From the sequence record PZ452612.1: a stretch of DNA of 64,000 bases; one strand, given 5' to 3'. The position numbers and the translations under genes are program-made. Under the pieces are notes generated by a model that ran no database searches, was not told the DNA's origin, and saw only the letters and a list, made by a program, of their open reading frames with translations. The stretch is from a phage. Shown here one piece after another: positions 1 through 36,224 of this stretch. Every line of letters begins with the position of its first letter. Position 1 is the stretch's first letter.

Positions 1-826
1 CTGTGCTACCTGTACGTCCTGAAACTTTGAATTGAGTGATACCAATATCATTATAAAGTTTCAAATCTTGAGGACGAACAAAACGAGTTCTCAACCAGTT
101 AAATGGGTCTGTATCACGAGCTTTAATACAGTGCTGCATAGGATATCCGTTTAAGGATTTAGCATCATCAGCTGTAACATCAGTACTATGGAAAATATAG
201 CAAGAGTCACGATAGCTACAATGTGTTGTATACCCTTTACCAGCATTAGAACAGAACTCATTTACAAGAACTTCAAATATTATATTGTTCTTATTGCAAA
301 ACTCTGCTGCACGCTTCAGGAAAGAAACTGAACGGTTCTTATGAATTCCACAGCAGACCTTTTTGATATTATACTGGTCATGCAAGTATTTGATTTGAGT
401 TACAGCATCGACATGTAGAATTGTTGAAACTTCAATCTCAATGTCTTTATTGACTTCACGAACAATTTCCATAACAACAGGGTTAGCGATAGTAATACGC
501 CATACGCCTATTGACCAAAGATACTGAACATAATCCTGAATAGCTTTCTTCTTCCACCCAACTAGTTCTCTTTTTGAACCAGGATTTATCGTGTTGAGTG
601 TATAGTTAAAGCAAATACCTAATTCGTTACAACGTTTAACGTAATCTTCTAACATCTTTTTGTCAACGTCAGGAAGCCTAAAATCAGGTCTGGCTGCTAC
701 AAAAGCCATTTCTCTTGTAGAGCCGTATACTTCGTTTATCAAGCTATTAGGATAAGTTTTATTGAGCTCTACGATTTTATCAAGAAGAGCTAAATCAAAA
801 TTCGTTCCAATTTTAAAAGTATTCAT
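1..826 (-). CDS. Peptidase-U32-family-like protein, N-terminal ~275 aa (3' end lies beyond window start)
   Basis: Minus-strand ATG at 826 with open frame to position 1 (MNTFKIGTNFDLALLDK...). Motifs resemble U32 family: YTLNTI, Cys-containing EVLVNEFCSNAGKGYTTHCSY, FKVSGRTGS. Called from memory only. Confidence 0.45.
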   Translation of the reverse strand, partial: MNTFKIGTNFDLALLDKIVELNKTYPNSLINEVYGSTREMAFVAARPDFRLPDVDKKMLEDYVKRCNELGICFNYTLNTINPGSKRELVGWKKKAIQDYVQYLWSIGVWRITIANPVVMEIVREVNKDIEIEVSTILHVDAVTQIKYLHDQYNIKKVCCGIHKNRSVSFLKRAAEFCNKNNIIFEVLVNEFCSNAGKGYTTHCSYRDSCYIFHSTDVTADDAKSLNGYPMQHCIKARDTDPFNWLRTRFVRPQDLKLYNDIGITQFKVSGRTGST

Positions 827-882
827 TTTTTTGCATCTCACGTTAATTGATGCGATGGTTTTTGCAGGTCTTACTTAAATTA

Positions 883-1269
883 TTATAGATTCGGTTTATA
901 TGATTTAAATGTTTCGAATTCGCCTTTATTCATAAGAGCTTTGAATTCGTCAGGACGCATAGCTTTGTCGTCGATAATCCAATCATATACTGGTTTATGT
1001 GTTAGCAAATTATGGTACTTCAAACCAATGTTTTCCAAGTTCTGAATCAGACTTGGGAGAATGTCAATTGCTATACGACCAGGACCTACTGACTTCATAC
1101 CGCGAGCAGTGTAAAGCGTTATGGTATGCCCTGCATCATACAGGGCATTAATAGCAGTCACCATTTCGACGTCTGGTTTGAAGTTCACGTAATCACGATT
1201 GTTATTCCACTCTGTTATACAATCATCGACATCAAAACAAAGATTAAGCATGTTTTCTACACGGTGCAT
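883..1269 (-). CDS. HAD-superfamily phosphatase (putative sugar-phosphate phosphatase)
   Basis: HAD motif I DxDxT (FDVDDCIT) near N-terminus; ATG at 1269 overlaps the stop of the upstream gene (TAATG). Track ORF 883..1284 trimmed to this ATG. Confidence 0.6.
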   Translation of the reverse strand: MHRVENMLNLCFDVDDCITEWNNNRDYVNFKPDVEMVTAINALYDAGHTITLYTARGMKSVGPGRIAIDILPSLIQNLENIGLKYHNLLTHKPVYDWIIDDKAMRPDEFKALMNKGEFETFKSYKPNL

Positions 1270-2954
1270 TAGATTCGTTCCCATTGATGAGTGATATCGC
1301 CACCGATTGGACGATAAGAAACACCAGTTTCTTTATCAGTTAGTACCCATTTACCAGGATTTTTTGTAATCAGAGTAGCCGTTACAGGTTCTGCTACGTC
1401 ATAACTAATAGAGCCGTCCTGAAGTACACGGCCCATGTTACGTAATTGCTTAGTCAGAAGTTCCATACCTTTATAATATGCGGCTACCGCTTTAAGTGGA
1501 TTATTCTTGAAATAACCACCTAATGCAATCCAGATAATTGCTACAGCCAAATGATGATACTCGTTAAACGAACTCATCTTTCCATATTTGTAAACTAATG
1601 GATTGATGTTAATAGTCACATTACAAGTTGTTTCGTCAATAGTAAACTGTCCCCAGGTCGGATTAGCGTTGAATTCATCATAACCTGAAACAGCATAAAG
1701 CACTTTAGCTTCATCATACAATTTTGGCCCGTAAATCTTGGTTTCGCCAAAATATCCACGAGGGTCGATAAACTTGACTTCGCCGTTATCAGTAATCATA
1801 GTATTACTGAAGTTCGGGTCACCGTGAATAACAGAGTACTGTCCCTGAGAACGGGTATGATAACGAATAAGATGTTCTAAAGCTTGCTTCAGCATTGGCT
1901 TCAGACGTCCAATCTTAGTGTAGTTCACGTGTGTGATTTTACCAAATGAATCAATCAATGGCTGAATGCTTTCACAACGATCAATAACTTTCGTATAGAA
2001 CTCTTTAGTGAAATCACGGCGAACAGTTTCAGGACTTACAAAATAAGTGTCTGTGCTGAATTTCAGTGCATCTAAAATTGCATCAACAATTTGTGGACGA
2101 GCAAGACTTGATTTGGATTTAATATATTCAAATGCTGGCTTACCTTTAATACGTTCCATTTCAAAATTATTTTCATTTACCGAAACTAACTGAGGAACTG
2201 AATCTGATTTCACTTTCAAATACCATGAAATCTCATCTTTTTGAAGAGCTCGACCTTGTTCGGTTAACGCGAATTTAGTTACAGTTTCTTCGCCAATTTC
2301 AACTGCATTAAAACTACGATTAAGTTCACGAACTTCATGAGCTTTTTCAAGTTTAGGCATATCACCTAAATCAATTAGATTCATAAGCTCTGATTTATTG
2401 AATGCACTGCCGTAAAGGAATTCTACGAAATCACGTCCTTTGCAGTATTCATGAATTTCCTCATCAGTAGAACCCATGTAGAATTCCCAGTCTTTGAACT
2501 GATAAATTCCTACAACATTACCGCCTGTTGAACCTACGTTAGTGATATTTTCACCATCGAAATTATATCGACATTCATCACCCTTAACATAGATTGCGTT
2601 AACATTCCAAGACCATGAACCAAAATCAGGAATAATATCACACCAGTTAACAATTACGTTATGGCCATCTAAATCTTTGTATAATTTAGCAAGAGCATAA
2701 GCAGAACCATACGCTTCATCAACTGTACGAATAGTCACATTGAACCCTTCTTGCTCGCAATAAGCTCGAACAGTTTCAGCAAATTTTGAATGAACTACTA
2801 CAATAATTTCATCTGCGCCAAGGTCAGAATAAATTGTATACAAATTGCTCAGAATAGTGTCTTGTTTATAGTTAACAAGAACTTTTGGAATATGATGCGT
2901 TATTGGATACAAACGAGTTGCCAGTCCAGCACCAAGAATAACAGCTTTTTTCAT
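1269..2954 (-). CDS. Bifunctional sugar-1-phosphate nucleotidylyltransferase (N-term) / APH-fold anomeric sugar kinase (C-term)
   Basis: 561-aa ORF. N-terminus MKKAVILGAGLATRLYPIT resembles RmlA-type G-x-G-T-R-L motif; C-terminus HGDPNFSNTMITDNGEVKFIDPRGYFG resembles APH/choline-kinase-like HGD..N...D motifs. SD GAGGA upstream. Confidence 0.7.
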   Translation of the reverse strand: MKKAVILGAGLATRLYPITHHIPKVLVNYKQDTILSNLYTIYSDLGADEIIVVVHSKFAETVRAYCEQEGFNVTIRTVDEAYGSAYALAKLYKDLDGHNVIVNWCDIIPDFGSWSWNVNAIYVKGDECRYNFDGENITNVGSTGGNVVGIYQFKDWEFYMGSTDEEIHEYCKGRDFVEFLYGSAFNKSELMNLIDLGDMPKLEKAHEVRELNRSFNAVEIGEETVTKFALTEQGRALQKDEISWYLKVKSDSVPQLVSVNENNFEMERIKGKPAFEYIKSKSSLARPQIVDAILDALKFSTDTYFVSPETVRRDFTKEFYTKVIDRCESIQPLIDSFGKITHVNYTKIGRLKPMLKQALEHLIRYHTRSQGQYSVIHGDPNFSNTMITDNGEVKFIDPRGYFGETKIYGPKLYDEAKVLYAVSGYDEFNANPTWGQFTIDETTCNVTININPLVYKYGKMSSFNEYHHLAVAIIWIALGGYFKNNPLKAVAAYYKGMELLTKQLRNMGRVLQDGSISYDVAEPVTATLITKNPGKWVLTDKETGVSYRPIGGDITHQWERI

Positions 2955-2995
2955 GTTGTGGTCCTCATTGGTAAGTAGGTGTATTGTACACTATT

Positions 2996-3139
2996 CTAGT
3001 TAAAGCATTCATACTTTGCTTGTAGTCCAATCATAATCCATCCAATTACAAGTGTTGGAATCATTACTGGAGCCGTTAAGCTCCAGTAGATAGTCATGAC
3101 AAGCATCAATAGTAAAAGTCCTATTGTTATTGCTTTCAT
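2996..3139 (-). CDS. Candidate small hydrophobic membrane peptide (47 aa), not in ORF track
   Basis: ATG at 3139 overlaps the isomerase stop (ATGA); translation MKAITIGLLLLMLVMTIYWSLTAPVMIPTLVIGWIMIGLQAKYECFN is strongly hydrophobic. Confidence 0.3.
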   Translation of the reverse strand: MKAITIGLLLLMLVMTIYWSLTAPVMIPTLVIGWIMIGLQAKYECFN

Positions 3140-3771
3140 TGTTCGCCTCGTAACATGGCACCTAGTGCACCGCCTGGATGGAACTTAAGAAAGTCATTAG
3201 AGGTAAATCCACGTTCAGACGAAAGGTTGATAGCAAACGTATCGATAAGCGCTAACAACAATGTAGTGGACATAGTCGGAGCCAGAGAATTCTCATCAAC
3301 CTCTACCGCGATGCCTGTACAGAAAGAGTAATCAAAAAGGGCTTCATTTTCTTGCGGAATGTCTGGGTTACAATGCAACAGAATCTGTTTGACATTTGGA
3401 CGAATCATTTTAAGATGCTTAGCCACGCCTATCATTTCTTCAGTCTTACCAGAACGACTAATATGAATCAACACATCATTAGGCGCAATGAATCCTGCAT
3501 CACCGTGAGAATAATGCCCAGTGTTCAAGTACATACTCGGGATACCGAGTGAAGCAAATGTCTCAGAAGCTTTAGTTGCAATATTAGCATTCTTACCAAC
3601 ACCTGTAATAATTACTCGGCTTTCATAATTACTAAGTCCAGGGCGTCGAAGAGTTTCTAGAATAGCATTATAACGAGCAGGGTTTTGACTAATTACTTTG
3701 GCCATAGCGGCCAAAGAAGAAGCTTGTTTTATGATTGCGTCAATAGCGATAGTAATAGGAGTAGTTTTCAT
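3136..3771 (-). CDS. SIS-domain sugar-phosphate isomerase, KdsD/GutQ-type (arabinose-5-phosphate isomerase-like, no CBS domains)
   Basis: 211 aa; motifs ITGVGKNANIATKASETFASLGIPS, HISRSGKTEE, LAPTMSTT and FHPGGALGAML resemble KdsD SIS domain; lacks the GNGGS pattern I associate with GmhA. Confidence 0.7.
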   Translation of the reverse strand: MKTTPITIAIDAIIKQASSLAAMAKVISQNPARYNAILETLRRPGLSNYESRVIITGVGKNANIATKASETFASLGIPSMYLNTGHYSHGDAGFIAPNDVLIHISRSGKTEEMIGVAKHLKMIRPNVKQILLHCNPDIPQENEALFDYSFCTGIAVEVDENSLAPTMSTTLLLALIDTFAINLSSERGFTSNDFLKFHPGGALGAMLRGEQ

Positions 3772-3811
3772 ATTTCTCTCATTTAATTAGTTTACCGTCC
3801 ATGACATTATA

Positions 3812-6523
3812 TCAAAAATCGAACATATCGAACAGAGATGCTTTCTTCTCGTAATCGAGTTTCGCTGCTGATGTGAATCCTTCAAGTGGTTTAATAAATG
3901 TCTTCTCAAGGAGAACAGTGTAGTCCATCCAATGAAGTACGTCATCTTTAATTAAATCTGTGATTTCAGTACCAGAAGGCCATGCGATACATTTATCACC
4001 GAACGGGTTTCCTTCACGTAAAGGCAGAACATATACTTTTTCACCTTCTACAACTTGTGGAGCATCAATATTACCTTTGATAGCTCTGTTATATGTCAGA
4101 ATTCCACGAATATGGAACGGACATTTAGGACCAGGGAATCCACCTACATCATATTTAGCAATGTTATTCGCAGAAGATACCGACGCGATGCTAATATAAT
4201 TCAATTGACGGAATTCTTTTTCAAACTCTTTAAAATATTCTTGTAATGATTCTTCACCTTCTTGAAGCATACGACGAATACATTCTTTAAGAGCTTTCTG
4301 TACTGCTTTAGGGGTCGAAGATTTCTGAGTCTCTAGACCCATGATTTTGAGTTTAGGCTCAGCGTAACGAGTACCTTCCATATCCCACACGTTTAATGCG
4401 TAACGTTTCTTACCAGTCCAGAATCCACCAATACCTTTAGAACCGAGCGGAGGACCAGCGATAGCTTCTCGGTCCATGAACATTAAGTGTTGTTTATTGT
4501 TCATGTATTCACACATTTCACGGAAACCTCTATCAATAGCAGGTTCCATACGTTCACGAGCGAACTTATCTAAGAAGTCTACCCAATGGTTGGTATCACG
4601 GAATTTAGATTCACCAACCTTATCGATAATTTTATCAGCAGATACGTAAATAGAGTCTGTATCACCATAAAGAACGAAAGCTTCACCTTCTGTACCACAA
4701 ACTTCGTTCAGATATTCATTAACTTTACGTTCAATCCACTGTAAAGCCATTTGACCAAATGTTGTGATTGCAGTAGCATTACGCAAATCGTAATAACGGA
4801 ACCAAACGTTGCCAAGTGCACCATAAAGTGAGTTGATAAGCAATTTACGGTTAATTTGTGCAGTCATACCTGCAACTTCAGTACGTTGAGCTCTAAACAA
4901 CATTTCATTAAGAGATTTAGCAGACAACTTTTTAATCTTTTCTTTAATCTCGTCAGTGAAGTCGAAACGATAATCAACATCTAATGGTTCGTCAACAGAA
5001 AGATTAGGATTATGCAACGCCTCTTTAATTATTTCACCATTACGTTGAGCCGCAAGCATATAACCTTTATGTTCTTTACGTTGATTAAAGACCTTAGTGA
5101 TTTCAGTTGGAACTACACCATCACGGTCTTTATAATACATCATGCCATTAGGAGAACAACTGTACACATCTGAAGGACGTTCAGCGATTGCGTTAATATA
5201 ATCATGCAGTGGAGCTACTTTAAACGTTCCTGCTATTGTTTCCGGGCTAATATTCACTTGGCGAATAATACTTGGATACAGAGATGTAAGGTCGAAACTC
5301 ATTACATATTTGTATCGATTTGGAATAGGTTCCTTAACAAAAGCGCCAGGATAAGGTTGAACCGGGTGAGAACGACCTTGTGGAATCACCTTGTTCTGCT
5401 CTTTAAGGCTATTAAAAATAATAGCATCCCATGTTTTAATTGGGCTAAACACAGATTGAATCTGTATCTTAGCATAATAACCCATGTCCAAACTCAAGTT
5501 GATGAACTGACGCTTAGCATCAATTTGCAATACACGATACACGTCGATAATGTTATAAGAAATATATCGTTGGTGATTGCTTTCACGAAGCTTAGAAATA
5601 GGGCCGTCATATTTCAGTTTACCAACGTTCAATTCAAATTCTGAAATGTAATCTAGAGAATACGACGGTTGATTGGTAAAAGAGAATTTTTTGTAAAGGT
5701 CGATATAATCAAGAACAGAGATACCGAACAATGTAATGATTTCACGAGAACCATACATGTTTTCGATAACTTTAACACGAGTTTTACGATGCGGTGATAA
5801 ACGTTTCGCAGTAGATTCGCCAAAAATATTCTTGATTCGGTTATACACATATGGAATATCAAATGACTCAACGTTCCATCCAGTCAAAATGACAGGAGTT
5901 TTCTGTTGCCAGAAGTTGAGATATTCCATCAACAATTCTTTTTCGTTATCGAACGGCATATAAATGATTTTATCGATAATTTCAGATGGAACTTCATCAC
6001 CGCCTTGTTCTTGAAGCTTAGCAGCGATTTCAATAGACCATTCTTCTACATTACCATATGGAGAATTCAATAGATCAAATACGTAGAACCTGTCGTCAAT
6101 TGAGTCATAATGGGTGATAGCATCAATCGGATGTTTTGCTTGTGATGGCTCAGGGAACCCATCCGGAGATGTTACTTCGATGTCGAAGTTAGCCACACGA
6201 ATTTTTGTATGGTCGTATTTGATTTCATAGTTATAAGTGTCAGACAAATACGCCAATTTGAAATCGTCCATGCCAAGTGCTTCAAGTCCGATATCTTCCA
6301 TGCGTTTAATCCATTGGGAGGCATCACGCATATTAGCGAACAACTTACGAGTACACGGCTTACCGTAGATATCGAAATATTTCGTAGCCTGACTTTCCGG
6401 ACAATGAGCAAACAGTGATGGTTTATATTCTACTTCACGAGTACGTTCACGGCCATTAGAATCGATGTAACGTTCAAAAATTGAATCACCAATCTGTTCA
6501 ACCGTTAAGTAAAATTCTTTCAT
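3812..6523 (-). CDS. 43: DNA polymerase gp43 (family B, with 3'-5' exonuclease)
   Basis: 903-aa ORF; motifs FDIEV (exo I), YGDTDS (pol motif C), KLLINSLYGALG; sequence matches my recollection of RB69 gp43. Confidence 0.97.
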   Translation of the reverse strand: MKEFYLTVEQIGDSIFERYIDSNGRERTREVEYKPSLFAHCPESQATKYFDIYGKPCTRKLFANMRDASQWIKRMEDIGLEALGMDDFKLAYLSDTYNYEIKYDHTKIRVANFDIEVTSPDGFPEPSQAKHPIDAITHYDSIDDRFYVFDLLNSPYGNVEEWSIEIAAKLQEQGGDEVPSEIIDKIIYMPFDNEKELLMEYLNFWQQKTPVILTGWNVESFDIPYVYNRIKNIFGESTAKRLSPHRKTRVKVIENMYGSREIITLFGISVLDYIDLYKKFSFTNQPSYSLDYISEFELNVGKLKYDGPISKLRESNHQRYISYNIIDVYRVLQIDAKRQFINLSLDMGYYAKIQIQSVFSPIKTWDAIIFNSLKEQNKVIPQGRSHPVQPYPGAFVKEPIPNRYKYVMSFDLTSLYPSIIRQVNISPETIAGTFKVAPLHDYINAIAERPSDVYSCSPNGMMYYKDRDGVVPTEITKVFNQRKEHKGYMLAAQRNGEIIKEALHNPNLSVDEPLDVDYRFDFTDEIKEKIKKLSAKSLNEMLFRAQRTEVAGMTAQINRKLLINSLYGALGNVWFRYYDLRNATAITTFGQMALQWIERKVNEYLNEVCGTEGEAFVLYGDTDSIYVSADKIIDKVGESKFRDTNHWVDFLDKFARERMEPAIDRGFREMCEYMNNKQHLMFMDREAIAGPPLGSKGIGGFWTGKKRYALNVWDMEGTRYAEPKLKIMGLETQKSSTPKAVQKALKECIRRMLQEGEESLQEYFKEFEKEFRQLNYISIASVSSANNIAKYDVGGFPGPKCPFHIRGILTYNRAIKGNIDAPQVVEGEKVYVLPLREGNPFGDKCIAWPSGTEITDLIKDDVLHWMDYTVLLEKTFIKPLEGFTSAAKLDYEKKASLFDMFDF

Positions 6524-18144: not shown

Positions 18145-18615
18145 TTAATCATGTTTCCACACCCCATTGGTATTCGACCAAAGTCGCTGATTATCTGATC
18201 CTCGCCACAGTTTTTTGGTCGGAAGATTTTTCTCATACTTCCCATCAATAATAACATCAACATATTTAAGCATTTCTAGTTGTTTAATATCTTCAAACTT
18301 ATATCCTGTCCACAACCAAATGCTTTTATTGGGATAAATATTTTTTACTGTTTGAACAATGCAATGAACAACATCTCTATTATCAGGATAGAGAGGGTCG
18401 CCTCCGGTTATAGTCAATCCTTCTATATAATCATTATTCAAACATTCAATTAATTGTTCTAGTGTCTCTCCAGTGAATGGAGCACCATTTCTAGCGTTCC
18501 ATGTTGATTTATTATAACACCCTTCACATTTATGCAAACAACCTGTAACGAAAAGAACGACCCTGCAACCAGGGCCATTCACAAAATCGCAAGGATAAAA
18601 TCTATCATAATTCAT
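18145..18615 (-). CDS. nrdG: Anaerobic ribonucleotide reductase activating protein NrdG (radical SAM)
   Basis: 156 aa; Cys cluster GCLHKCEGCYNK; immediately downstream of nrdD. Confidence 0.9.
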   Translation of the reverse strand: MNYDRFYPCDFVNGPGCRVVLFVTGCLHKCEGCYNKSTWNARNGAPFTGETLEQLIECLNNDYIEGLTITGGDPLYPDNRDVVHCIVQTVKNIYPNKSIWLWTGYKFEDIKQLEMLKYVDVIIDGKYEKNLPTKKLWRGSDNQRLWSNTNGVWKHD

Positions 18616-20429
18616 TGGTGTTTAACCCTATGCATGATTTCTTTATTTTTACCGAGATTAAATCCGCGTTCGTTCGGATTTCCCAAATAACCGCATGTTC
18701 TTCTTATGGTGTTCATCTTTTTAGGATCAGTTTCTCCGCAAACTGAACAAACAAATCCGTTTTCAGTAGGAGTCATTTCATGGGTACTTCCACATGTAAA
18801 ACATTTATCTACTGGCATATTAACACCAAAATAATCTAAATGTTGTGCAGCATAATCCCAGACAGCCTCAAGTCCCTTTAAATTGTTTTTCATATCTGGA
18901 AGTTCAACATAAGAAATGTGACCACCTGTCGCAATGAAATGATATGGCGCTTCACGAGAAATCTTTTCAAACGGAGTAATATTTTCTTCTACTGAAACAT
19001 GGAAACTATTAGTGTACCAGCCTTTATCTGTAACATCTTTTACACTTCCATATTTTTCTGTGTCTAGTTTACAGAAACGATAACAAAGGTTTTCAGCAGG
19101 TGTAGAATACAAGCTAAAAGCAAACCCAGTTCTTTCAGTCCATTGTTTAAGAAGAGCATTCATTTTAGTTAAAATTTCTTGTCCAATATCACGTCCGACA
19201 AGAATATTCAATTCGTGGATACCAATGTATCCTAAAGACACTGAACTTCTACCGTTTTTAAATAACTCAATTATGTCGTCATCAGGTTTAAGACGAACCC
19301 CGAATGCACCTTCTTGGTAAAGAATAGGAGCAACAGTCGCTTTAACTCCTTTTAAGGAACTAATTCTACACATCAAGGCTTCAAAACACAGATCCATACG
19401 TTCATTGAATAATTCAACAAATTTCTGTTCATTGAACTGTGTTCCAATATAAGAATCTAATGCGATACGAGGAAGATTCAGTGTTACAACACCGAGATTA
19501 TTACGTCCATCAAGAATTTCATTACCAGTCGAATCTTTCCATACGCTCAAGAAACTACGGCAACCCATTGGAGAAACTGGAACTGAAGAACCAGTAATAG
19601 CTTTATTATTCTTAGCTGAAATAATATCAGGATACATTCTTTTGCTTGCGCACTCTAGAGCAAGCTGCTTAATATCATAGTTCGGATCGTCTTTATAAAG
19701 ATTAACACCTTCTTCAACGAACATAACAAGCTTAGGGAAAATAGGAGTTATTCCATCACGACCAAGACCTTTAATGCGGTTTTTAAGAATTGCCTTCTGA
19801 ATCATTCGTTCAGTCCAATCGGCCCCCGTACCAAATGTAATTGTTACAAAAGGCGTTTGTCCGTTTGAACTAAAGAGAGTATTTACTTCATATTCATAAG
19901 CTTGGAACGCGTCATAGACATCTTTTTCTGTTTTGGATTGAGCATAATTCAACGCATCAGCGATTTGCCATTTTTCCGCATCTTCAACATGTTTAGCGTA
20001 TGTGCGTTTAACATAAGGAGAAAGAACTTTATCGACATTTGCAAATGTAGTTCCGCCATACTGATGTGAAGCAACTTGTGCAGTAATTTGTGCCATAATT
20101 GCAGTAGCAACACCAATCGATTTAGGCGTTTCAATTTGAGCATTGCCTAATTTAAATCCGTTCTCAAGCATCCCCTTTAAATCGACTAAACAACAATTAG
20201 TAAACGGAAGAGCAGGAGAATAATCAATATCATGCATGTGGATAATTCCACTTTCATGCGCATTCATAATAAAAGACGGGACCATATTTTTGGCAATGTG
20301 CTTAGACACAATACCAGCCATAAGGTCCCGTTGAGTTGGAAAAACACGAGAATCTTTATTAGCATTCTCGTTTAAAAGGTCTTTATTAGTTTTATGAATT
20401 AATCCTTCAATTTCTTTTTCAATTTTCAT
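18612..20429 (-). CDS. nrdD: Anaerobic ribonucleoside-triphosphate reductase NrdD
   Basis: 605-aa uninterrupted ORF; C-terminal Zn-ribbon cysteines (CFTCGS...CSVCG) and glycyl-radical motif RRTCGYLG. Confidence 0.95.
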   Translation of the reverse strand: MKIEKEIEGLIHKTNKDLLNENANKDSRVFPTQRDLMAGIVSKHIAKNMVPSFIMNAHESGIIHMHDIDYSPALPFTNCCLVDLKGMLENGFKLGNAQIETPKSIGVATAIMAQITAQVASHQYGGTTFANVDKVLSPYVKRTYAKHVEDAEKWQIADALNYAQSKTEKDVYDAFQAYEYEVNTLFSSNGQTPFVTITFGTGADWTERMIQKAILKNRIKGLGRDGITPIFPKLVMFVEEGVNLYKDDPNYDIKQLALECASKRMYPDIISAKNNKAITGSSVPVSPMGCRSFLSVWKDSTGNEILDGRNNLGVVTLNLPRIALDSYIGTQFNEQKFVELFNERMDLCFEALMCRISSLKGVKATVAPILYQEGAFGVRLKPDDDIIELFKNGRSSVSLGYIGIHELNILVGRDIGQEILTKMNALLKQWTERTGFAFSLYSTPAENLCYRFCKLDTEKYGSVKDVTDKGWYTNSFHVSVEENITPFEKISREAPYHFIATGGHISYVELPDMKNNLKGLEAVWDYAAQHLDYFGVNMPVDKCFTCGSTHEMTPTENGFVCSVCGETDPKKMNTIRRTCGYLGNPNERGFNLGKNKEIMHRVKHQ

Positions 20430-35648: not shown

Positions 35649-35862
35649 AAGGAATTTCCTCATCGGTGGCAAGGTCATATTCGACCAATTGGATAGGCTC
35701 ATTAATACCATATCCACGTACAGTGATATCGGTTGTCGGATATTTTCCAGTAATATCACCCATTCTAAATGCTTCAGTGAATGATTGCTCGCCTGAGCAA
35801 CTAAACCAGGCGGCAAAACATTTTAAAACATCTTCAGACCCTTCTATAATCAATTTAGCCAT
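35638..35862 (-). CDS. Hypothetical small acidic protein
   Basis: 74-aa ORF. Confidence 0.45.
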   Translation of the reverse strand: MAKLIIEGSEDVLKCFAAWFSCSGEQSFTEAFRMGDITGKYPTTDITVRGYGINEPIQLVEYDLATDEEIPYVD

Positions 35863-36224
35863 TATAGACTCTCAGTAAAGGTACGAGCGATAACGTCGCG
35901 CTGCTGTTCCGGGGTCAGAGAGTTAAAGCGAACTGCATAACCGGATACACGGATGGTCAGCTGTGGATATTTTTCCGGATGCTTAACTGCATCTTCCAGA
36001 GTTTCGCGACGCAGAACGTTAACGTTCAGATGTTGACCACCTTCAATTTTAACTTTAGGTTGATGTTCAATTTCAATTTCACGGGCATTCAAACCGTAGA
36101 AAATTTCCGGGTCTACAATAGCGTCTTCTTTAAAAGTCTTAGAGACGATAATCCGGGCTTGAGTACCGTCTTCAAAATAAATAGTGCCTTTATGTGCACC
36201 TTCAAGAATTTGATATGCTTTCAT
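35862..36224 (-). CDS. Autonomous glycyl radical cofactor GrcA/YfiD-like protein
   Basis: 120 aa; C-terminal ~64 aa ([61 protein letters not shown]) carries the RVSGY glycyl-radical motif and matches E. coli GrcA as recalled; this part is visibly GC-rich. Confidence 0.8.

Follow-up and report, generated by a model that had tools for sequence, protein, structure and literature searches.

What would a member of the U32 family do inside a phage gene cluster whose published chemistry makes arabinosylated 5-hydroxycytosine (5hoC) DNA, and on which molecule would it act? The question is raised by the very beginning of phage sequence record PZ452612.1, of which a stretch of 64,000 nucleotides (hereafter the window) was analyzed. 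A minus-strand open reading frame (ORF) starts with an ATG at positions 826-824 and runs for 275 codons to the window edge, where the gene is cut. An earlier note on this DNA, made from its letters alone, had seen U32-like motifs in the partial ORF and had suggested that the product, as a phage copy of a family of anaerobic hydroxylases, could hydroxylate a nucleic-acid or sugar substrate. Here, we report that the gene encodes a divergent U32 protein that is co-inherited with a DNA glycosyltransferase and, in many phages, with a chorismate mutase. We lean, with only a little more confidence than doubt, toward a prephenate-dependent, O2-independent (deoxy)cytidylate C5-hydroxylase that would work in parallel to the O2-dependent enzyme of the same cluster.

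The source is a T4-like, RB69-like Mosigvirus: the first 4 kb of the window show 100% identity with Escherichia coli O157 typing phages 3, 6, and 13 and 98.5% identity with RB69. The whole gene, 386 codons long, was taken from NC_041864, a phage record with the same sequence (L001:7666-8826, minus strand; L numbers denote the loci of our comparison), where the copy is annotated 'peptidase'. The window protein is identical to YP_009593058, and its RB69 homolog is RB69p050 (NP_861740). The partial ORF is real and U32-like, as the earlier note had it: the in-window fragment alone passes the threshold of Pfam Peptidase_U32 (PF01136) with E = 1.2e-7 and 31.7 bits vs a cut-off of 22.4, and it matches PHROG 5757 (E = 2e-192). 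The full-length protein, which might have fallen outside the U32 profile or into a different triose-phosphate isomerase (TIM) barrel family, scores 42.2 bits against the same cut-off (E = 7.3e-11), with profile positions 2-192 of 233 covered. Judged by its sequence, the gene product is a member of the U32 superfamily, far beyond chance.

Conserved cysteines, candidates for the Fe-S ligands that the earlier note had asked after, are also seen. Ten are invariant in the phage U32 family (40 sequences; relatives 45-88% identical). The in-window part of the protein holds the TIM-barrel core and C158, C177, C192, C203, C209, and C233, and the C-terminal 111 residues beyond the window edge include a CX4CX3CX2C cluster (C340-x4-C345-x3-C349-x2-C352) that is invariant in the same 40 sequences. 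Iron-sulfur (Fe-S) ligation is our inference from this pattern; the ten residues would suffice for two clusters in one chain, i.e., the protein is probably a compact, single-chain, two-cluster Fe-S enzyme of the U32 superfamily. It is 360-390 amino acids (aa) long across the family, compared with 653 aa in RlhA and 453 aa in TrhP. Twelve U32 subfamilies have been described. The phage protein is very divergent, and the profile of its family recovers only 1,670 of 1.84 billion representative proteins at E ≤ 1e-3.

Sequence searches of the PDB, both with the single U32 protein and with the 40-sequence family profile, gave no homologous solved structure, and the known U32 proteins are linked to the phage family only through fold comparison and profile-profile alignment. 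The alignment (hhalign) against E. coli RlhA, TrhP, UbiU, and UbiV has a probability of 96.2% and E = 2e-9 over 211 columns. In it, the phage sequence FKVSGRTG falls on the U32 strand FKIEGR, and the invariant C203 and C209 fall on RlhA C169 and C176, which are both essential for 5-hydroxycytidine formation (PMC5727448). An AlphaFold structure was predicted for the 87%-identical homolog P0002, not for the window protein itself (predicted local distance difference test score, 91.3). This model matches the fold of Mk0906 from Methanopyrus kandleri (PDB ID: 5D88), a U32 'peptidase' of 247 residues (12-13% identity), and it has the U32-type TIM-barrel fold.

The chemistry of the surrounding cluster has been published. 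In RB69 and Acinetobacter phage DLP3, all cytosine is replaced by arabinosylated 5hoC; deoxycytidine monophosphate (dCMP) is hydroxylated by the thymidylate-synthase homolog RB69 gp48, which binds flavin and takes its oxygen from O2, as 18O2 labeling demonstrated (PMC13326640). Kinases and then two or three glycosyltransferases act after gp48, and the pathway is pre-replicative, i.e., the full cytosine replacement of virion DNA is made before replication (PMC13326640). Uridine diphosphate (UDP)-arabinose is supplied by isomerase, kinase/pyrophosphorylase, and phosphatase genes, and nuclear magnetic resonance (NMR) identified the sugar of RB69 as plain arabinose (PMC13326640); the window equivalents of these three kinds of genes occupy positions 883-3771. 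The U32 gene lies inside the cluster and is co-oriented with it, between the gp51 and gp48 homologs, in RB69, the window phage, Serratia 92A1, and Thanatos-type phages. In NC_041864, the gp48 homolog (L001:6671-7387) lies ∼280 bp downstream of the U32 gene, with one 79-codon ORF (L001:7430-7669) in between. Because the oxygen of gp48 comes from O2, an O2-free route is a real unmet need, and the 'anaerobic' idea of the earlier note thereby gains a concrete target. The U32 protein has no similarity to the Thymidylat_synt profile and gp48 is a separate downstream gene; what we propose is therefore a shared product and not membership of the synthase family.

Already known are the gene with its U32 label in databases and the cluster chemistry, published in 2025-2026. 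RB69p050 itself appears only in Table 1 of the 2026 paper on RB69 and DLP3, as 'Sugar or heterocycle reductase' with 5D88 as its structural match, and it is neither discussed nor tested; the word 'U32' is absent, and two transfer RNA (tRNA) pyrimidine-hydroxylation pathways are mentioned in the Discussion merely as unrelated to gp48 (PMC13326640). The Thanatos paper gives 'no valid hypothesis' for the source of the hydroxyl, and a second paper groups the region as 'putative sugar-modifying genes'. The family of the RB69p050 gene is unmentioned in Thomas 2018, the Durham-collection paper, and the Thanatos paper. In the literature searched, He et al. 2026 and Mahler et al. 2025 excepted, we found no link between the RB69p050-type gene, U32 hydroxylases, prephenate or chorismate mutase, and O2-free 5hoC DNA.

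A homology search returned 268 relatives of the U32 protein, with phage copies 76-87% identical and a large metagenomic clade near 50%. We compared 47 viral (IMG/VR) loci with U32, 50 loci with the gp48-type synthase, and nine cellular genome assemblies, and clustered the neighboring ORFs. A glycosyltransferase of the RB69 arabinosyltransferase-1 family accompanies U32 in 37 of the 47 viral loci (15/15 T4-like and 22/32 others). The ThyA-like synthase stands next to U32 in 15 of the 47, all of them T4-like; a profile search within ±10 kb plus a motif-based contig scan found it in none of the 32 non-T4 loci, and none of the non-T4 U32 contigs is among the 50 synthase contigs. One of them (L022) gave a weak synthase match; this protein is a canonical ThyA in which D169, N177, and L143 are retained. 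Two gene orders recur outside the T4-like phages. The first runs glycosyltransferase, isomerase, nucleoside triphosphate (NTP)-transferase/kinase, in some cases a DAHP synthase-chorismate mutase, an unknown protein of ∼200 aa, and U32. The second is Tmk-like kinase, glycosyltransferase, and U32, found in six loci without sugar-activation genes and embedded among genes for replication and nucleotide metabolism (primase, PolIII-alpha, dCMP deaminase, and dUTPase). The glycosyltransferases of this second order are the best non-T4 matches to a profile built from T4-like RB69-type sequences only (E 4e-15 to 7e-27), and the order mirrors that of RB69, where kinase (gp45) and glycosyltransferase (gp46:47) are joined by the synthase (gp48), whose position U32 takes. 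Other U32 neighbors are dCMP deaminase, Tmk, NT5C, and deoxynucleoside kinase (dNK).

The second line of evidence concerns the putative oxygen donor. Chorismate mutase makes prephenate. A chorismate mutase gene occurs in 23 of the 47 U32 loci, compared with none of 35 synthase loci without U32 (Fisher p = 1.4e-7, uncorrected for phylogeny). The assignment rests on Pfam CM_2 (E 1e-10 to 1e-18) and on the catalytic residues R11, R28, K39, and S84 of EcCM, which are invariant in the phage proteins. The gene is found near U32 in at least four distinct gene orders, including fusions with DAHP synthase. In many T4-like phages, those of Enterobacter, Klebsiella, Serratia, Yersinia, Proteus, Edwardsiella, and Shewanella, a stand-alone AroQ chorismate mutase of 79-132 aa lies directly downstream of U32; in 51 isolated-phage records it adjoins the ThyA-like gene, and in every inspected locus it stands between U32 and the ThyA-like gene. 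By genetic evidence, RlhA and TrhP need prephenate (PMC5727448, PMC6599085), and for UbiU/UbiV it is the isotopically proven oxygen donor (PMC10990095). A route through CmoA and carboxy-S-adenosylmethionine (Cx-SAM), as in PMC12783734, was also considered for the chorismate mutase and rejected for T4-like phages, in whose cluster there is no methyltransferase or CmoA-like gene.

The fusions are worth a separate remark. Proteins with type I-beta DAHP synthase followed by a C-terminal chorismate mutase are found at L032:8411-9433, L035:7302-8357, L036:8332-9387, L034:9-971, and in L059 (a 342-aa ORF adjacent to U32). In these uncultured phages, the fusion is an apparent shikimate-pathway auxiliary gene, one or two genes from U32.

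In the proposed pathway, the U32 enzyme would most likely convert dCMP to 5-hydroxy-dCMP (5hodCMP) and, less likely, act on deoxycytidine triphosphate (dCTP) or on cytosine already in DNA. The pyrimidine would undergo a two-electron oxidation through the Fe-S cluster(s), and delivery of hydroxide would be coupled to the decarboxylation of prephenate to phenylpyruvate, the family mechanism proposed in PMC10990095. The 5hodCMP would then be phosphorylated by phage kinases and put into DNA, and the 5hoC would be arabinosylated by phage glycosyltransferases with UDP-arabinose from the products of the neighboring genes. In RB69-like phages, U32 would run parallel to gp48 and could permit DNA synthesis in the anoxic gut, as NrdDG does beside NrdAB; many uncultured phages and phages of strict anaerobes would have no other hydroxylase. 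A broader claim, on which we stop somewhat short of an even bet, is that the viral U32 subfamily is the first O2-independent hydroxylase acting on DNA precursors, making 5hodCMP from dCMP and prephenate; it would be the only way into glycosylated-cytosine DNA for a hidden population of phages of gut anaerobes and the anaerobic twin of the flavin/O2 enzyme in coliphages, fed by phage chorismate mutase and DAHP synthase as auxiliary genes.

Known systems give this proposal both precedents and limits. The closest is RlhA (YdcP), the E. coli 23S ribosomal RNA (rRNA) 5-hydroxycytidine-2501 synthase, which belongs to the same superfamily and needs prephenate and Fe-S assembly (PMC5727448); the base that we propose for the phage product, 5-hydroxycytosine, is the same, and both proteins have extra essential or invariant cysteines in their C-terminal part. 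They differ in that RlhA acts on one residue of a ribosomal precursor and the phage protein would act on a deoxynucleotide, and the phage protein has a C-x5-C spacing, a 10-residue insert, its own CX4CX3CX2C tail, and no long C-terminal extension. TrhP and TrhO, which both make 5-hydroxyuridine 34 (ho5U34) in tRNA, show the logic that we propose for the phage, with the O2-dependent TrhO corresponding to gp48, the prephenate-dependent U32 protein TrhP to the phage U32, and a C5-hydroxypyrimidine as the common product; organisms of both oxic and anoxic niches keep the two (PMC6599085). TrhO is a rhodanese, however, and gp48 has a thymidylate-synthase fold, the targets are tRNA and DNA precursors, respectively, and the redundancy that is demonstrated for TrhP/TrhO is a proposal for U32/gp48. 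UbiU and UbiV are likewise Fe-S U32 proteins with a small aromatic substrate that back up flavin/O2 monooxygenases anaerobically (a pairing proposed for the phage), although their similarity to the phage protein by hmmsearch is marginal and they form a heterodimer with one [4Fe-4S] per subunit that needs UbiT, in contrast to a single chain with cysteines enough for two clusters.

Within the phage pathway, the nearest counterpart is the synthase itself (RB69 gp48, DLP3 gp80, and the HY126 homolog), whose product and pathway we propose for U32 as well. Fold and cofactor are unrelated, and the O2 requirement of gp48 is proven experimentally. Acinetobacter phages and Dhakaviruses have the gp48-type synthase and no U32, and the 32 non-T4 U32-bearing viral loci gave no match to the synthase. 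With NrdAB and NrdDG, T4-like phages encode their own enzymes, one aerobic and one anaerobic, for a single essential step in the supply of DNA precursors; we use this only as an analogy, as the glycyl-radical chemistry and the protein families differ from U32. Finally, the CmoA/CmoX system for carboxymethylcytosine shows that phages have recruited bacterial RNA-modification enzymes, together with prephenate, to hypermodify cytosine C5 in DNA (PMC12783734), although that system uses Cx-SAM and a C5-methyltransferase homolog that acts on DNA.

Several observations weigh against the hydroxylase proposal. The classical U32 signature, which we take to be E-x-F-x2-G-[SA]-[LIVM]-C-x4-G-x-C-x-[LIVM]-S, fits the E. 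coli RlhA, TrhP, and UbiU sequences and is not found in the phage family, which reads E-[VL]-[LM]-x-N-E-F-C-(insert)-T-H-C-x-Y-R-D-S-C-Y without G-[SA]-[LIVM]: the strict motif is altered, the spacing is C-x5-C vs C-x6-C, and 10 residues, including a further invariant cysteine, are inserted after the conserved glutamate. Two cysteines and the glutamate still align by hhalign, indicating a divergent U32 subfamily rather than a non-member. The window phage and RB69 lack a chorismate mutase and have an unrelated 79-aa ORF in its slot; they would have to rely on host PheA/TyrA. U32 is not required for the modification, as DLP3 makes arabinosyl-5hoC without a U32 gene (PMC13326640), and U32 is missing from Dhakaviruses such as JS10, in which synthase, glycosyltransferase, and sugar genes are all present; since DLP3, Acinetobacter phages, and Dhakaviruses keep the cluster without it, U32 must be accessory rather than core, at least in air. 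Dhakaviruses presumably come from human stool and, if so, gut coliphages can do without U32. The O2-dependent synthase is present in every cultured phage that has U32, and the redundancy is assumed. A divergent or distant ThyA-like copy could exist in the non-T4 phages beyond ±10 kb and the motif scan, the association counts come from loci that share ancestry and are not phylogenetically independent, and sugar-activation genes also adjoin U32 in T4-like phages and many metagenomic loci. As of 2024, reconstitution in vitro had not been achieved for any U32 hydroxylase (PMC10990095), so the chemistry of the family is itself partly inferred.

Among the alternatives, the one that we treat as unlikely rather than improbable is that U32 acts on polymers, i.e., on residual unmodified cytosine in replicated phage DNA or on host or phage rRNA/tRNA to tune translation. 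The two characterized pyrimidine-C5 U32 enzymes do use RNA polymers (PMC5727448, PMC6599085), the aligned motif residues of the phage protein are those of RlhA, and action at the DNA level would still account for the linkage with glycosyltransferase and chorismate mutase. Against this stand the short chain without the long C-terminal extensions of RlhA and TrhP, the absence of a nucleic-acid-binding domain in a domain profile search of the full-length protein, and the recurrent neighbors that use mononucleotides (Tmk-like kinase, dCMP deaminase, NT5C, dNK, and dUTPase); complete cytosine replacement is pre-replicative, and an RNA target would leave co-inheritance with a DNA glycosyltransferase unexplained. 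The isoelectric point is uninformative on nucleic-acid binding (6.1 in the phage protein vs 5.2-6.7 in the E. coli U32 proteins). The compact protein, its neighbors, and the pre-replicative pathway are our reasons for preferring the mononucleotide level.

Slightly less probable still is a role in tailoring the DNA sugar, in which arabinose phosphate or nucleoside diphosphate-arabinose would undergo a redox, epimerase, or 'reductase' reaction. Here the gene positions pull in two directions: U32 comes directly after the arabinose genes in T4-like phages and ends a glycosyltransferase, isomerase, and NTP-transferase/kinase block in at least eight metagenomic loci, yet six loci combine kinase, glycosyltransferase, and U32 without sugar-activation genes, and Dhakaviruses have the same cluster without U32. 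The two published labels quoted above favor a sugar role, and many of the TIM barrels that weakly match the P0002 model are sugar enzymes. DLP3, however, makes the same arabinosyl-5hoC without U32, the sugar of RB69 is unadorned, the chorismate mutase linkage has no rationale in pentose chemistry, and all known U32 substrates are aromatic rings. Of the two kinds of substrate that the earlier note had suggested, the comparative data favor a nucleotide or base over a sugar: U32 is accompanied by a DNA glycosyltransferase and a nucleotide kinase also in loci without sugar genes, and by chorismate mutase.

A prephenate-dependent hydroxylase of another small molecule is improbable in our judgment. 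The substrate could be deoxyuridine monophosphate (dUMP), giving 5-hydroxy-dUMP for a thymidine-type modification that is minor or conditional, or an aromatic metabolite other than a nucleotide. TrhP hydroxylates uracil (PMC6599085), in several metagenomic loci U32 comes directly after dCMP deaminase and near dUTPase, which both feed dUMP, one locus (L022) pairs U32 with a canonical ThyA, and a cellular cassette pairs it with a guanylate-kinase/methyltransferase fusion. The only chemically characterized relatives (RB69, Serratia phages, and Thanatos) nevertheless modify cytosine with an O-linked pentose, with no modified thymine reported, and the glycosyltransferase found alongside U32 is a homolog of the one assigned to 5hoC. 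A collagenase-like U32 peptidase processing a phage or host protein can practically be set aside: it has only database labels ('peptidase' and 'collagenase-like protease') in its favor, inherited in a family whose catalytic mechanism and residues were never defined, and characterized U32 members are linked to hydroxylation, the ten invariant cysteines point to Fe-S redox chemistry, and the neighboring genes belong to nucleotide, sugar, and prephenate metabolism rather than to morphogenesis.

The distribution of the gene bears on the anaerobic part of the hydroxylase proposal. It is present in 222 isolated phage records, and the host genera named among the matches are all Enterobacterales or Shewanella. 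The synthase is present in 346 phage records, including 57 of Acinetobacter, a strict aerobe, and none of these 57 is among the U32 matches above the search threshold. Both U32 and chorismate mutase are missing from the cluster in DLP3 and in an Acinetobacter phage. In an Acinetobacter phage and a Dhakavirus, the phosphatase gene is followed directly by kinase or synthase, so that U32 (plus chorismate mutase) behaves like a cassette that can be inserted. No phage of the isolate database has a member of the ∼50%-identity clade. Among cellular genomes, the subfamily occurs in nine of 185,579 species; most of the nine are metagenome-assembled genomes (MAGs) from lineages that are typically anaerobic, and one is an isolate of Phocaeicola faecalis. 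Among phage records with NrdD, facultative anaerobes predominate as hosts.

If the proposal is correct, it would account for the replication in the anoxic intestine of RB69-type phages, in which every cytosine gives way to a base whose known synthesis needs O2, and phage-encoded chorismate mutases would gain a function. There would be a second, evolutionarily independent route to 5hoC DNA, apparently used alone by uncultured phages of anaerobes, which widens the search for hypermodified phage genomes, with relevance to phage therapy, restriction evasion, and sequencing. The new elements would be the architecture of the hydroxylase, the substrate class, and the viral niche. A single chain of 360-390 residues with a nucleotide substrate would also be far more tractable than RlhA (ribosome precursor), TrhP (tRNA), or UbiU/UbiV (membrane lipid and UbiT); as a soluble enzyme of a cheap small molecule, it would make in vitro reconstitution of a U32 hydroxylase practical for the first time, and this would settle the mechanism of the family.

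The features of the window that surround the gene or provide its context are collected in Table 1.

Table 1. Features of the window discussed in the text, with the basis of each assignment
Feature	Position	Strand	Basis or remark
U32-family putative Fe-S protein gene, 5' part	2..826	(-)	codons 1-275 of 386 (71%)
Sigma-70-like promoter match, TTTAAA-16-TATAAT	882..909	(-)	10/12; best score in bases 1-4000
HAD-type sugar phosphatase, RB69 gp51 equivalent, AfhF analogue	883..1284	(-)	TIGR01689 E = 2e-13; PHROG 1238
Bifunctional NTP-transferase (N-terminal) and sugar kinase (C-terminal), RB69 gp52:53, AfhE-like	1269..2954	(-)	Pfam (NTP_transferase match, weak kinase matches), NCBIfam
Small hydrophobic 47-codon ORF between isomerase and NTP-transferase/kinase genes	2996..3139	(-)	annotated hypothetical
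Arabinose-5-phosphate isomerase (KpsF/KdsD-like SIS domain), RB69 gp55 equivalent	3136..3771	(-)	NCBIfam (KpsF/GutQ E = 2e-32, KdsD E = 7e-31), Pfam SIS, PHROG 5670
DNA polymerase	3812-6523		ORF list and annotation of the identical record
nrdG	18145-18615	(-)	Pfam Fer4_12, Radical_SAM
nrdD	18612-20429	(-)	Pfam NRDD E = 1e-170, Gly_radical
grcA-like autonomous glycyl-radical protein, 120 aa, RVSGY motif near the end	35862..36224	(-)	motif scan

Both kinds of neighbors that had been noticed earlier are there, i.e., the adjoining sugar module of phosphatase, NTP-transferase/kinase, and isomerase, and the anaerobic-metabolism genes, nrdG and nrdD being confirmed by Pfam and the grcA-like ORF by motif scan. 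The nrdD and nrdG genes are context outside the pathway: they show that, for another step in the supply of DNA precursors, this phage is already equipped with an O2-independent duplicate. The GrcA/YfiD-like ORF is the third oxygen-related adaptation gene in the window and is likewise context only. The promoter match falls within the 3'-terminal part of the phosphatase gene and precedes the U32 start codon by 56 nt, and the U32 gene might have its own promoter there; this is weak evidence, as the total of such matches in the first 4 kb is not above shuffled controls.

Among the uncultured loci, some islands differ from both recurrent orders. On a 466-kb JGI contig of megaphage size (L003:944-11086), the genes for a MazG-like protein, a radical-SAM/SPASM protein, a GT-B-like 402-aa protein, Tmk, uracil-DNA glycosylase, PolIII-alpha, dCMP deaminase, and U32 form a nucleotide-metabolism operon of a very large phage, in which U32 overlaps the dCMP deaminase gene by 4 nt. 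At L004:10001-17428 (also L005 and L060), U32 is followed by NT5C 5'-nucleotidase, a PnuC-like transporter, dNK, an AlaX-like protein, a radical-SAM/SPASM protein, a second, faint U32 paralog, and a nucleoside 2-deoxyribosyltransferase, a dense set for deoxynucleoside metabolism. A ribonucleotide-reductase-like role, considered for the radical-SAM/SPASM, dNK, and NT5C neighbors of L003 and L004, was dropped because these neighbors are not conserved across loci. The canonical ThyA of L022 stands on a 230-kb viral contig (L022:5509-9975) with a glycosyltransferase, an HD-domain protein, a kinase, an NTP-transferase/kinase, and U32, and there is the possibility that such phages modify a uracil-derived base rather than cytosine.

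A different company is seen in cellular or prophage-like loci, where a conserved four-gene cassette that ends with U32 consists of a GP88-family protein (PF17338), a guanylate-kinase/S-adenosylmethionine-dependent methyltransferase fusion (∼425 aa), a ∼267-aa protein, and U32. It is found at L066:3044-7137 (Phocaeicola faecalis), at L062:5975-11089 (a BRC1 MAG, where a Cas4-like nuclease precedes it), in L004, L060, and L065, and in part in L061. The cassette may be an undescribed nucleotide or DNA modification module; by analogy, the pairing of a hydroxylase with a methyltransferase recalls the step from ho5U to 5-methoxyuridine (mo5U) in tRNA.

Just outside the window, the 79-aa ORF downstream of U32 (RB69p049) has no Pfam match and overlaps the U32 stop codon by 4 nt. 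It fills the Mosigvirus slot that chorismate mutase uses elsewhere, a 74-aa ORF takes the same slot in Serratia 92A1, and L014, L016 (Yersinia-type), and L021 carry both; an ORF of this type may be a partner protein of the U32 enzyme.

Two annotations in the sugar module deserve a comment. The phosphatase gene is named 'phosphoheptose isomerase' in RefSeq and PHROG, which is probably a propagated misannotation, since the protein matches the TIGR01689 capsule-biosynthesis phosphatase and corresponds to the arabinose-bisphosphate phosphatase of the published pathway, the AfhF-type enzyme that converts arabinose-1,5-bisphosphate to arabinose-1-phosphate (PMC13326640). The NTP-transferase/kinase, whose gp52:53/AfhE type works in UDP-arabinose synthesis (PMC13326640), is an intact 561-codon ORF in the window and is split into ORF052c and ORF053c in the RB69 reference (L002:9268-10954). 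The RB69 glycosyltransferase gp46/47 is likewise split in that reference, in agreement with the published view of sequencing frameshifts in the RB69 record.

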